Shown in pieces: positions 1 through 3,000 of a DNA stretch of 5,758 nt; position 1 is the first letter of the stretch, and every line of letters starts with the position of its first letter. A program made the position numbers. Source of the DNA: a virus (taxonomy: Duplodnaviria; Heunggongvirae; Uroviricota; Caudoviricetes); the IMG/VR virus record IMGVR_UViG_2778261708_000019. The stretch is one strand, 5' to 3'.

Positions 1-3000
1 CATCCTGACTTTCCAGAACCATACGAATCGCCCGCTGACGGACTTCGGGGGAAAAACGAGTATTTTTAGTCATCCTGTTTACCTCTTTCTCAGGGAGTTT
101 AGTCTCCAGGATTTCCGGGGCGGTTCATTCCTTAACTCAAAATGGCAATGATAGCCATATAACTTCTCTCCTCTACGGAGGAGGCCCAGCATTAACTAAT
201 TCAGCTGGAGTACCCTGGACTGCAGCTTATGTTGATACTATTGGCGAAGTCACGGCCGATCTTCGTTCAAATATTGCAGCTGAAGCTCGGGCAAAGATCA
301 TTTACGAACGTCTCATTAATGTTACTGATGATCCTGGAGTAAAAGACACTCTGGCATTTTTAATGACCCGGGAAGCAGCACACATGCTTTCATTTGAAAA
401 AGCATTACATTCAATTCGTAACACCTTTCCACCAGGAAAATTACCACCACTTGAGAAATACAAAAACGTATATTACAACATGTCAGAAGGTGAAGACGTC
501 AGAGGTAGTTGGAACAGTGATGAAAACTTTGACTATGTTTCCGATCCAGTTTCAGCGGTTGACGGTGGGGATGGGAAGGCCTCGATAAATCTTTCGACCA
601 AGCAAGAAGCTATGATAAAAGCTATGGCAACAAGGTTGAAATCCCATGAAGACATCAATCCTGTCACTGGCGCTGAGCTTGCTGAAGGAGAACCACAAAC
701 AAAGATAAATAGTAAAAACTAATTATCTTCTGGTATTTAGCTATCCCTCATAAGTTAATTGCCGCTGAGATATCCTAAGCTCTAGCCTCTGAAAATACAT
801 TTATATTTCGAAGCCCGCGATATTTTAAGCGGGCTTTTATTTTAAACTTCAGGTATTACAGGCCACTCAATATCAGGTGCAGTTGATGTATCAACACGGT
901 TCAGCAACACCCGATACTTTTTCCAGGCTTCCAGCAATGAGGTTTCTTCCTCCGTTGCGATTTCCAGATCTACAGCATCCTGAAGTGGCGCAATATGCTC
1001 ACTGGCTACCTGCATCAGGCTGTTTTTTGTTTCTTCCGCCTCCCGGATCCGGAACAGTTTTTCTGCTTCTGCATCTTTCACCCAGGCTGTGCCGTTCCAC
1101 TTCTGAAACTCCCCTTCCGGCGATAACCAGGTAACATTTTCCGGTAATGAGCCGAGTTCAGAAATAAATAACGCGTCGCCGGAAGCCACGTCATAAACCG
1201 TTTTACCCCGATGATCTTCAACGAGATGCCACGATGACTCATCACTGTTGAAAACAGCCACGAAGCCAGCCGGAATATCTGGCGGTGCAATATAGGTACT
1301 GTTTGCTGGCAGACCTGTATGAGGCGGAATATATGCGTCACCTTCACCAATAAATTCATTAGTTCCGGTCAGCAGATTATAAATTTTTATGGTCCGTGGT
1401 TGTTCACTCATTCTGAATGCCATTATGCAAGCCTCACAATGTAGTTAAATGCGATGTTTTTGACAGTGTTTTCCGCGTTACCCGCAGCGTTAACGGTGAT
1501 GGTGTGTCCATGTGAGCCAATCGCAACAGAGTGCGTATGAGCACCAATACCGACAGTATGTGCGTGAGCACCTGCAGATGCAGCTGTGCCGCTGACACTA
1601 TGAGTGTGCGCTCCTGCAGCACTTGTATTCACACTGGCCGCAGACACTACCTTATGTACTGACCCATTTTGTGACCACTGGCTGACTGCTGATGCGCCTG
1701 TGACACTATGAGTATGGTTTCCGGCACTTGCGGCTGTACCGCTCACACTGTGCGTGTGCGCCCCGGTGTTATTCGTGGATTTAGTGCCGTAATCAAACGA
1801 CGATGTGGTTTTCGTCCCCAAATCCGTACTGGATGCGCTGGCGCTGTGGGTGTGCGATTTAATGCCGTCCTGTTCCTGAGACAATACGGCCCGACCACTG
1901 GCAGGTTTGCCCTTAATCGTCCAGCCACGCATATCAGGGATCACGCCTGACGGATAAGCGGCTGCAAGTTTCGGGTATGCAGATTTGTCAAAAGTCTGCC
2001 CCTGCATCAGGGCATAGCCAGACGGAACGGTATCTGATGGCCACGGGATTGGTGCGCCAGGCGGATAAAACTGCTCTGATGGCGTATAGAGTGAATAAAC
2101 TGTACCGTCCGTTAACCCTTCCGGCTTATTAGCAGAATATGCTGGTGACGTATGAATCGTCACGCTGGCATTACTGGTATAATCCCATTGAATATTTACA
2201 CCAGTCGCATAATTTCCGATTGCAACGTAAATATCGTAAGTATCACCAGATGTATTGACCCAGGCAAAATTTGTAAACCCTGTCGATGTGCGCTGCCATA
2301 AAGCACCAGTAATCCCCTTCGGATTACCATTACCTGCACGCAAAACAAGTTCAGATATACCTGCCTGTTGAGGTGACCCCACGTTAAATCCCGCGCCACC
2401 AATCAACGTAATTGAAACAACAGAACTCGCCTGTGGCATGGTTACCGTTGCTAATTTGAACCAACCAGCACCACCGCTGAATGACATTGTTGTTGAGTTA
2501 AGCGTACCAATATCTTTCGGCGTCAGTGTTATATCCGATGAAAGCGCCTTACCATTCACCTTACGGGCAGAAGGTACCCGACCATTCGCATTATCATTAG
2601 CTGCTTTCACTGCTTTCGGTGTCGCGGCAAGCGTTTCAGATGCGCTGTTGGTTGCACTACTGAGCTGGACAATTCCTTTTTGTGCTGTCGTAGCGTCCTG
2701 AGCAGTATATTTCCCGTTAGCAAGGTCATAGGCTGCCTTTACCGACTTTGGCGTTGCCGCCAGCATTTCAGATGTGCTGTTGGTCGCGTTGCTAAGCTGA
2801 ACTATCCCTTTCTGTGCTGTCGTTGCATCCTGTGCGGTGTATTTCCCGTTAGCCAGCTCATACGCGGCCTTAACGGCTTTTGGCGTTGCCGCCAGTGACT
2901 CGGAAGTGCTGTTAGTCGCACTGCTGAGCTGTACTATCCCCTTTTTCGTCGTGCTCGCATCCTCAAGCGCCACGGCGGATGCAATATCCTCTGCCCGTTT

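Follow-up and report, generated by a model that had tools for sequence, protein, structure and literature searches.

Phage_fiber_2 repeats in an O157:H7-type lambdoid side tail fibre gene: ancient paralogues and a likely junction between fibre halves

What are the tandem repeats in the middle of this side tail fibre gene, how old are they, and what might their number mean for the fibre? We addressed these questions for a stretch of 5,758 nt of viral DNA (IMG/VR record IMGVR_UViG_2778261708_000019; hereafter the window), in which an initial annotation had noted three tandem coding repeats in stf. In phage lambda, the Stf protein sits at the tail tip as a trimer and has OmpC as its surface receptor. 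In the window, the C-terminus of J (identified by PF12421), lom, stf and tfa follow one another in that order, all on the minus strand (Table 1), an order also found in lambda and in E. coli prophages. Judged by this order, by its N-terminal domain and by its heptad rod, the gene belongs to the lambda-type stf genes; its identity to E. coli O157:H7 prophage genes is 99.6-100%. The ORF comprises 973 codons (1423..4344) if a GTG at 4344, two codons upstream, is taken as the start, and the true start is likely the ATG at 4338; the TAA stop overlaps the ATG of tfa by 1 nt.

The Stf protein matches PF08400, PF03406, PF07484 and PF03335 in Pfam and, by sequence, the PDB entries 9e7m, 2xgf and 5yvq. 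Residues 3-96 align with the solved 'Tail fiber protein' chain 9e7m (E = 4e-52), the N-domain of lambda Stf, and the rod (aa 100-461) is heptad-periodic, with alanine autocorrelations of 0.48, 0.35, 0.39 and 0.43 at lags 7, 14, 21 and 28; its counterpart in lambda, residues 102-393, has been described as a coiled coil (PMC12617516). The tip region, matched by PF07484 Collar and PF03335, holds seven HxH motifs (aa 831, 863, 877, 913, 927, 936 and 945); these repeated His-x-His motifs and the homology to 2xgf characterize it, at the level of sequence, as a gp37-type needle tip. A Pfam scan of the distal shaft segment (aa 594-745) gave no match, and NCBIfam yielded no family for Stf, Tfa or a 119-aa ORF.

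Table 1 Features of the stf region, in window coordinates
Feature	Coordinates	Strand	Evidence and remarks
stf, side tail fibre gene	1423..4338	minus	ORF; 971 aa from ATG at 4338
N-terminal virion-attachment domain (Prophage tail fibre N-terminal)	3937..4338	minus	PF08400, 240.8 bits, aa 3-136
Ala/Ser-rich proximal coiled-coil rod	2962..4047	minus	aa ~100-461; Ala 36%, Ser 24%
Repeat unit R1	2830..2961	minus	aa 462-505 from GTG, 460-503 from ATG; PF03406 1-42 of 42, 76.7 bits
Repeat unit R2, internal	2698..2829	minus	aa 506-549 (GTG numbering); PF03406 1-42 of 42, 75.2 bits
Repeat unit R3, terminal	2566..2697	minus	aa 550-593 (GTG numbering); PF03406 1-41 of 42, 75.4 bits
Distal shaft segment after the array	2110..2565	minus	aa 594-745; common to some P2-type fibres
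Receptor-binding tip homologous to T4 gp37 needle	1426..2109	minus	2xgf, E = 2.5e-88, aa 746-973
tfa, tail fibre assembly chaperone	842..1423	minus	PF02413 Caudo_TAP, 153.8 bits; directly downstream of stf
lom (Ail/Lom outer-membrane protein)	4403..5002	minus	PF06316, 398.9 bits; upstream of stf

Flanked by the proximal Ala/Ser-rich coiled-coil rod on one side and by the distal half with the gp37-like tip on the other, the array consists of three tandem units on the minus strand within stf. It spans 2566..2961; the interval first given for it, 2575-2946, was essentially right and clips about 15 nt of R1. The period is 132 nt or 44 aa, as seen with TRF (2630-2940, period 132, 2.4 copies, 80% matches, score 405) and in the register of the units, and not the ~135 bp or ~45 residues proposed earlier. 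The suggestion that the unit is the tail-fibre repeat Phage_fiber_2 (PF03406, 'Pf2') was borne out by an HMM search, in which the whole protein scored 172.4 bits in three stretches against a gathering threshold of 22 bits, and each 44-aa unit, scanned alone, scored 75-77 bits with an E-value of ~1e-21. Membership in PF03406 follows from scores above this threshold together with the head-to-tail arrangement at 44-aa spacing in a tail-fibre protein. All four substitutions ascribed to the copies (S/N, T/A, A/S and Y/N) are present. The third copy had been called truncated, and its tail does depart from R1 and R2 after about codon 33-38 (about 2584-2599 in the window), at the joint with the distal fibre, but R3 is a complete PF03406 domain with a different C-terminal joint and is not decayed: its last 6-11 residues alone differ from those of R1 and R2, and its last 33 nt are 36-45% identical to theirs.

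In-register identity at an offset of +132 is 0.762, compared with 0.289 +/- 0.035 (maximum 0.381) at 743 other in-frame stf offsets (z = 13.7). Aligned as DNA, the copies differ pairwise at 31, 52 and 42 positions, mostly third codon positions in the stf frame (24/31, 36/52 and 27/42). Over the 33 codons shared by all units, pairwise nucleotide identity is 0.74, 0.69 and 0.76, whereas random codon choice for the unit proteins predicts 0.67, 0.69 and 0.70, with fractions of 0.03, 0.57 and 0.07 of the simulations reaching the observed values. Because the identity is about equal to the random-codon expectation, the similarity of the units at the DNA level is carried by amino-acid conservation. 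The objection that the similarity might be compositional only, foreseen in the initial annotation, fails, in-register homology being clear. The wider reading that this is no true repeat, the similarity being due to composition or chance or the coding frame lying on the other strand, can point to a nucleotide identity no higher than back-translation of the protein predicts and to plus-strand ORFs of 71-87 aa that span the array; it is refuted by the z-value and the Pfam E-values, the third-position bias in the stf frame also speaks against it, and we attach practically no probability to it. ORFs read on the plus strand or in alternative frames across the array and the Ala/Ser region gave no significant Pfam match (best 19.3 bits against a cutoff of 27).

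An old duplication, as proposed earlier, is supported by the synonymous sites, which are saturated (pS 0.73-1.0, pN 0.05-0.11, dN/dS about 0.04). With this saturation, and with a DNA similarity no greater than protein conservation forces, the substitution pattern shows the three units as ancient paralogues under strong protein-level selection. Between alleles, R1-type units agree at 97-100%, and so do R3-type units, whereas the two types are 69% identical to each other. Selection for extra synonymous divergence between the units was also considered and rejected, the observed identity equalling the random-codon expectation rather than falling below it.

Comparison with other alleles shows what the array joins. 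Three N-side classes and six C-side classes occur in ten observed combinations. Identity to K-12-type stfR drops from about 1.0 to 0.2 at unit nt ~90-105, identity to P2-type fibres climbs to 0.93-1.0 within the penultimate unit, and the distal shaft sequence is also found after a P2-type N-terminus (P0016 and loci L021-L026). With these breaks in homology to other fibre types within it, the array is a splice point between exchangeable fibre halves, and the alignments show it as the natural joining place of different N-terminal (virion-attachment) and C-terminal (receptor-binding) halves. A functional engineered chimera consists of lambda Stf 1-393 followed by P2 H 251-end (PMC11338833), and its junction is the exact end of the last Pf2 unit in both lambda Stf and P2 H. 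For the retargeting of lambda-type particles, the point where the last Pf2 unit ends offers a splice site that occurs in nature and has been validated by experiment (PMC11338833). Each unit would be a self-contained segment of the trimeric shaft, and for this reason the gain or loss of units, or their use as a splice point, would leave the folding of either half undisturbed.

Homologous stf genes were scanned for copy-number variants, and variants with 1-7 units were found: in a census, a biased sample made up of the 80 best matches to a 3-unit query and 60 more rows taken as a spread, loci had 1, 2, 3, 4, 5 or 7 units at a spacing of nearly always 44 aa. Copies were counted in complete genomes and viral contigs; matches from the protein search were almost all contig-end fragments of at most 320 aa. 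Identical units may be collapsed in short-read assemblies, and Pf2 copy numbers from such assemblies are not to be trusted. The wide taxonomic spread suggested by the genome scan was rejected in part, as 17 of the 80 loci show 99% identity or more to phage lambda and are contamination. Alleles with 1, 2, 4 and 5 units have flanks in common with this stf, and the N1+C1 combination, the type of this gene itself, comes with 1, 2, 3, 4 and 5 units. In wider databases, 4,965 cluster representatives match the repeat at E <= 1e-3, arrays of 11-18 units occur, and single proteins hold up to 12 near-perfect or 17-18 divergent units.

The first units of other alleles have 97-100% nucleotide identity to R1 and the last units 98-100% to R3, a pattern that shows first and last units as fixed orthologous 'end pieces' across the alleles compared. 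The 2-unit alleles L081 and L082 are exactly R1+R3, with R2 precisely absent. In L028 the extra unit is a hybrid, cleanly divided between R3 (nt 1-53) and R2 (nt 46-132), the single unit of L083 is a hybrid with the head of R1 and the tail of R3, the three internal units of L017 are all identical, and adjacent units are identical over 132 nt in L017, L029 and L037. From the hybrid products we infer that it is the internal units that are gained and lost, through unequal homologous recombination in register.

The earlier suggestion of ongoing gain or loss thus holds in the family (1, 2, 4 and 5 units; hybrids), but none is visible for this allele. The longest exact in-register runs shared by its units are 17, 8 and 11 nt. 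Across an 801-nt block the five O157-type genomes sampled agree at every position (100% identity), and identity reaches at least 99% in 345 records. Stability is to be expected for this allele, as the DNA divergence between its units is too great for ready recombination, and the proneness of arrays to recombination differs between alleles. Could the array nevertheless be a contingency locus, i.e. a hypermutable tract with high-frequency copy-number change within a lineage? The identical adjacent 132-nt units of L017, L029 and L037 should indeed recombine readily, but the short exact runs, the saturated synonymous sites and the uniformity of the O157-type sequences speak against it here, where neither long identical repeat DNA nor, among the sampled O157-type genomes, length variants were found. 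For this allele the idea is disfavoured, and we regard it as very unlikely.

With more units, the fibre would become longer or gain extra joints, and it is plausible, as had been proposed, that copy number tunes fibre length. A stronger version, in which selection acts on copy number so that the length or reach of the fibre suits, for instance, a thicker or thinner layer of host O-antigen or capsule, draws on the range from 1 to 5 units within a single N-side/C-side combination (N1+C1 included), on the existence of arrays of 11-18 units and on the strictly kept register, which is expected of a modular spacer. However, total Stf length among close alleles (901 to 1152 aa) varies mostly with the number of coiled-coil heptads (42 aa fewer in L081 and 105 aa fewer in lambda) and with inserted distal domains, not with Pf2 number, and copy number does not vary within the sampled O157 lineage; we therefore hold selection for length to be a possibility on the unlikely side.

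Alternatively, the rod and the distal half could be connected by the units as globular knobs or as flexible joints, with unit number setting flexibility and not length. In lambda Stf, in which residues 1-91 form the collar domain, the single unit (aa 355-392) ends exactly where the hinge between the proximal and distal domains (394-422) begins (PMC12617516), and rotary-shadowing EM of EPclB was read as showing a globular domain within the protein where Pf2 lies (PMC3368898). That interpretation is explicitly tentative, though, and the Ur-lambda paper (PMC12617516) places the unit in the proximal coiled coil (102-393), the hinge being the next segment; the lambda hinge segment, KAPLDSPALTG..., is missing from the window Stf. 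A role as joints seems doubtful to us. Structural information on the unit is sparse: an AlphaFold2 monomer of the repeat block (14-sequence alignment) was unusable (mean pLDDT 31.7, pTM 0.16), a literature search that included the Mu entries 5yvq, 8ju3 and 9ki1 returned no description of a PF03406 fold, the phage Mu papers are silent on the modelling of protein S residues ~100-157, which are homologous to the unit, and the one modelling paper that lists PF03406 presents a model flagged as discordant by its own authors.

A further elaboration, which we consider improbable, would make the array an adaptive, host-matched ruler with built-in stability control. First and last units would serve as fixed adaptors kept diverged at synonymous sites, and internal units as a cassette open to expansion; by their number, the internal units would determine how far the side fibre reaches, or how flexible it is, with respect to O-antigen or capsule. 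Arrays would survive in the long term only once their units were recoded, as in the window, while expansions of identical units would be transient.

Our preferred explanation, in which we have high confidence, is that the array comprises three copies of the known 44-residue Phage_fiber_2 unit in an O157:H7 lambdoid stf, ancient paralogues whose copy number changes in register and which mark the junction between half-fibres. The observation is correct but ordinary, everything in it being already known in kind: the repeat family is established, as are the mosaicism of tail-fibre genes and fibre engineering at this boundary. If copy number does set fibre reach, engineered phage particles could be tuned simply through it.

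Among the closest known systems is Stf of lambda (P03764; orf-401 + orf-314), which has the same collar domain, heptad Ala/Ser coiled coil, Pf2, gp37-like HxH tip and Tfa. Lambda has one unit followed by the hinge sequence where the window has three, its coiled coil is shorter by 105 aa (15 heptads), and the window Stf continues after the array with a different 14-residue sequence and a different distal shaft. StfR of the E. coli K-12 Rac prophage (P76072) shares about 96-98% nucleotide identity with the window in the sequence preceding the array and as far as nt ~90 of the first unit, falling to about 0.2 at unit nt ~105, and has the same tip and Tfa type; it differs in its single unit ending ...AYDNAEKRLQKDQNG, followed by a large unrelated distal insert (1120 aa in total). 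Phage P2 gpH (P26700) likewise carries tandem 44-aa Pf2 units, two in number (168-211 and 212-250; 3 to 7 in sampled P2-like loci), with the same 12-residue linker, and in some P2-like fibres the last unit and the complete distal shaft are those of the window, at 93-100% nucleotide identity, whereas the P2-type N-terminus is a myovirus-type baseplate-attachment domain (PF12571, precomputed annotation) without the Ala/Ser coiled coil. Protein S of phage Mu (PDB 5yvq, 8ju3, 9ki1) has one Pf2-like unit at residues ~108-150 (DASLNKKGLVQLTSATDSPSETLAATAKAVKIAMDNANARL) that aligns to R3 (E ~2e-9), but as a single, more diverged copy between different flanking domains. EPclB, the collagen-like prophage fibre of EHEC (Ghosh et al. 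2012, PMC3368898), also occurs in O157:H7 prophages and resembles the window Stf in combining PfN (PF08400), a coiled coil and Pf2 (PF03406); its Pf2 lies between two collagen triple-helix segments and its C-terminus is PfC, whereas the window Stf is without a collagen (Gly-X-Y) tract.

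The tandem repeat that the initial annotation had placed in the side tail fibre gene stf was confirmed, with its period, strand and boundaries corrected. Tandem Repeats Finder reported 2.4 copies of a period of 132 (2630-2940, 80% matches, score 405), and setting the limits of the three units (R1, R2 and R3) in the coding frame gives a period of 44 aa or 132 nt, not 45 aa or 135 nt. Identity at the +132 offset was 0.762, whereas the 743 remaining in-frame offsets gave 0.289 +/- 0.035 (maximum 0.381; z = 13.7), which excludes composition or chance as the origin of the similarity, so that the repeat withstands the refutation set out for it initially; the four substitutions named earlier (S/N, T/A, A/S, Y/N) were all found between units. 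Plus-strand and alternative-frame ORFs over the array gave no significant Pfam family match. The units belong, as had been proposed, to PF03406 (Phage_fiber_2): in the HMM check, whole Stf scored 172 bits over three stretches, and R1, R2 and R3 scanned singly scored 76.7, 75.2 and 75.4 bits (cutoff 22), covering model positions 1-42, 1-42 and 1-41, respectively, of 42. The third copy, previously regarded as truncated, is thus a complete domain, which departs from R1/R2 (…AAY[ED]LANGKYTAQ) in its last 6-11 residues only, at the joint with the distal fibre.

Genes of the window and repeat units of stf
Feature	Residues	Position	Strand	Basis
J C-terminus		5069..5725	-	ORF + Pfam search
lom		4403..5002	-	ORF + Pfam search
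Fibre ORF (stf), 973 codons		1423..4344	-	ORF + Pfam search
Tail-fibre assembly gene (tfa)		842..1423	-	ORF + Pfam search
R1	aa 462-505	2961..2830	-	coding-frame register
R2	aa 506-549	2829..2698	-	coding-frame register
R3	aa 550-593	2697..2566	-	coding-frame register

The DNA likeness of the three units is merely what strong selection at the protein level imposes. Over the 33 codons common to all units, nucleotide identity was 0.74 (R1-R2), 0.69 (R1-R3) and 0.76 (R2-R3), close to the 0.67, 0.69 and 0.70 expected from back-translation with the gene's own codon usage, and against this expectation no residual DNA-level sign of recent duplication was left. Third codon positions account for 24/31, 36/52 and 27/42 of the pairwise differences over full units, with pS of 0.73-1.0, pN of 0.05-0.11 and dN/dS of ~0.04 where dS is finite (Nei-Gojobori). 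Because pS lies in the saturated range and identity at the codon-choice expectation, R1, R2 and R3 are ancient paralogues, which bears out the old duplication suggested initially.

We ran a unit HMM over the best 80 matching viral contigs and five E. coli loci. In the 83 fibre ORFs past the first threshold, the window's included, units were spaced by 44 aa in nearly all cases and numbered three in 62, four in 16, two in 2, five in 2 and seven in 1. At a looser threshold, one unit each was detected in K-12 StfR and in two further E. coli alleles. Among complete E. coli genomes taken as a spread sample, hits spanning both flanks of an 801-nt query (repeat block plus flanks) were mostly 801 bp, with two of 669 bp (-132) and two of 537 bp (-264). 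A profile search of 1.84 billion representatives returned 4,965 proteins at E <= 1e-3, with arrays of up to 12 near-perfect units (P0121); giant fibre proteins of 3377 and 1746 aa hold 17-18 units that are divergent. Besides the 44-aa linker, the family uses a second one of 56 aa (…AAGKAPxSHTHPWxQITGVP…, AAGKAPSSHTHPWNQITGVPTASLTAKG), and the two types alternate in arrays of 7-12 units; the long arrays and the second linker were seen in the set P0121, P0122, P0123, P0139 and P0140. In the database search, the top hits to the repeat block (P0001-P0120) were nearly all 'partial', <=320 aa and on short contigs. Pf2 (PF03406) repeats and multiple paralogous prophage fibres break short-read assemblies, and draft-genome copy numbers are therefore unreliable. 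In the genome-contig scan, 17 of the 80 loci matching the unit (L138, L141, L142, L144, L146-L158) matched the stf region of phage lambda at >=99% identity. Their source taxa are unrelated (Pseudomonas, Shewanella, Chromatium, Algoriphagus, Kitasatospora, Enterococcus and others); a number of the contigs have low coverage, and some have the length of the lambda genome (~48.4-48.5 kb). We rejected true taxonomic breadth for these loci as lambda control-DNA contamination of public assemblies; with contaminants removed, a one-genome-per-species scan gave one, two, three and four units in 21, 23, 14 and 3 loci.

Across lambda-type alleles, identity to R1 is 97-100% for the first unit and identity to R3 is 98-100% for the last; R1 and R3 themselves share only 69% identity. 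The two outer units are thus old and fixed, and it is the middle of the array that changes. The two-unit alleles L081 and L082, from complete genomes, are exactly R1+R3, the single unit of L083 is a hybrid with an R1 head and an R3 tail, and three internal units of L017 are identical. L028, with flanks 97-99% identical to the window, has the order R1, R2, extra unit, R3, and the extra unit, identical to R3 at nt 1-53 and to R2 at nt 46-132, is the expected outcome of an unequal crossover, in register, in a parent resembling the window. The window's units share exact in-register stretches of 17, 8 and 11 nt at most, shorter than the roughly 23-27 nt that RecA in E. coli requires for efficient exchange; in recently expanded alleles such stretches reach 132 nt. 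The window's allele should therefore be stable. In agreement, the 801-nt block was 100% identical across sampled O157-type genomes. The ongoing gain or loss proposed initially therefore holds for the family (1-7 units, hybrid units) but is not evident in this allele.

Clustering the 120 aa before and the 150 aa after the array across loci gave three N-side classes (P2 gpH-type, lambda Stf-type and one other) and six C-side classes in 10 observed combinations, and copy number varies inside single combinations. Identity to L084 stays near 1.0 as far as nt ~75 of the first unit and has fallen to 0.2 by nt ~105; identity to K-12 stfR (L085) is 0.73-1.0 as far as nt ~75 and then drops at the same breakpoint. 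P2-type fibres carrying the window's distal half show ~0.27 before the array, 0.6-0.8 in the early units and 0.93-1.0 from inside the penultimate unit onward, and P0016 runs from a P2-type N-terminus through two units into the window's distal sequence. The combinations and alignments place the junction between exchangeable fibre halves in the Pf2 array. A working lambda-P2 fibre joins lambda Stf 1-393 to P2 H 251-end (Brödel et al., PMC11338833); in both proteins the joint lies exactly where the last Pf2 unit ends (…MDETNR in lambda, …MDETNK in P2).

Residues ~100-157 of phage Mu fibre protein S (5yvq, 8ju3, 9ki1) align with one unit, and the available papers on this protein do not state whether these residues were modelled. 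The Ur-lambda unit ends exactly at the start of the hinge (394-422), with residues 102-393 counted as coiled coil (PMC12617516). Ghosh et al. (PMC3368898) described Pf2 as little known and, from EM, tentatively placed an internal globule there; a monomer AlphaFold2 model of the repeat block was unusable. We infer that the unit may fold on its own as a segment of the trimeric shaft, and that unit number might set fibre length or flexibility. Total length in close alleles ranges from 901 to 1152 aa; instead of Pf2 number, it is the coiled coil and inserted domains of the distal part that account for much of this range.

The rest of Stf reads as a mosaic of known parts. The N-domain belongs to PF08400 and matches a solved 94-residue 'Tail fiber protein' chain (9e7m, E = 4e-52); residues 1-91 of lambda Stf form the collar domain (PMC12617516). 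Residues ~100-461 (2962-4047, -) are of low complexity (Ala 36%, Ser 24%) with a clear heptad period, the pattern to be expected of a proximal coiled coil, and this segment is 42 aa shorter in L081 and 105 aa shorter in lambda, or 6 and 15 heptads. Other frames of the segment contain long ORFs (335, 249 and 172 aa) that are spurious; the ones searched against Pfam gave no significant match. The distal shaft after the array had no Pfam match, and the tip (aa 746-973; 1426-2109, -), which carries seven HxH motifs, is a homologue of the T4 gp37 needle (2xgf, E = 2.5e-88). The sequence between the motifs varies from allele to allele (L083-L085 and P0144, for example), pointing to differences in receptor specificity.

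Every sizeable supported gene of the window lies on the minus strand, in the order of lambda, and prophage genes of E. coli O157:H7 are 99.6-100% identical to the fibre ORF. ORF calling starts stf at GTG 4344, from which residues are numbered here (ATG numbering is lower by 2). The ATG two codons downstream, at 4338 (GGGGTGAATATG) and preceded by GGGGTGA, is almost certainly the true start, since lambda Stf and chain 9e7m begin MAVKISG. The stf TAA stop and the tfa ATG share one base (TAATG; 1421-1425, -), suggesting translational coupling. The J C-terminal part contains a 19-nt tandem repeat (5500-5542, 2.3 copies, 84% matches), and the left end of the window (1-127) matches the end of the IS3-like element IS1203 in some O157 genomes. 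A 119-aa plus-strand ORF (363-722), under a RefSeq 'manganese catalase family protein' annotation and without match in an NCBIfam search, is probably a fragment just past the prophage tail genes. In O157:H7 strain 2571 (NZ_CP038425.1), the match to the 2922-nt stf query, otherwise 100% identical, spans 4235 bp, and the annotation beneath it includes an IS1203 transposase, so that this strain's fibre gene is IS-disrupted.

The array in the window's stf is a standard example of an established repeat family, in an established type of gene. In the early 1990s, Haggård-Ljungquist and colleagues, Sandmeier and colleagues, and Hendrix and Duda reportedly showed that the fibre genes of lambda, P2, Mu, P1 and T4 evolve as mosaics, with conserved motifs at the exchange sites. 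Lambda Stf itself has one unit, at aa 355-392, whereas the window's Stf has three.
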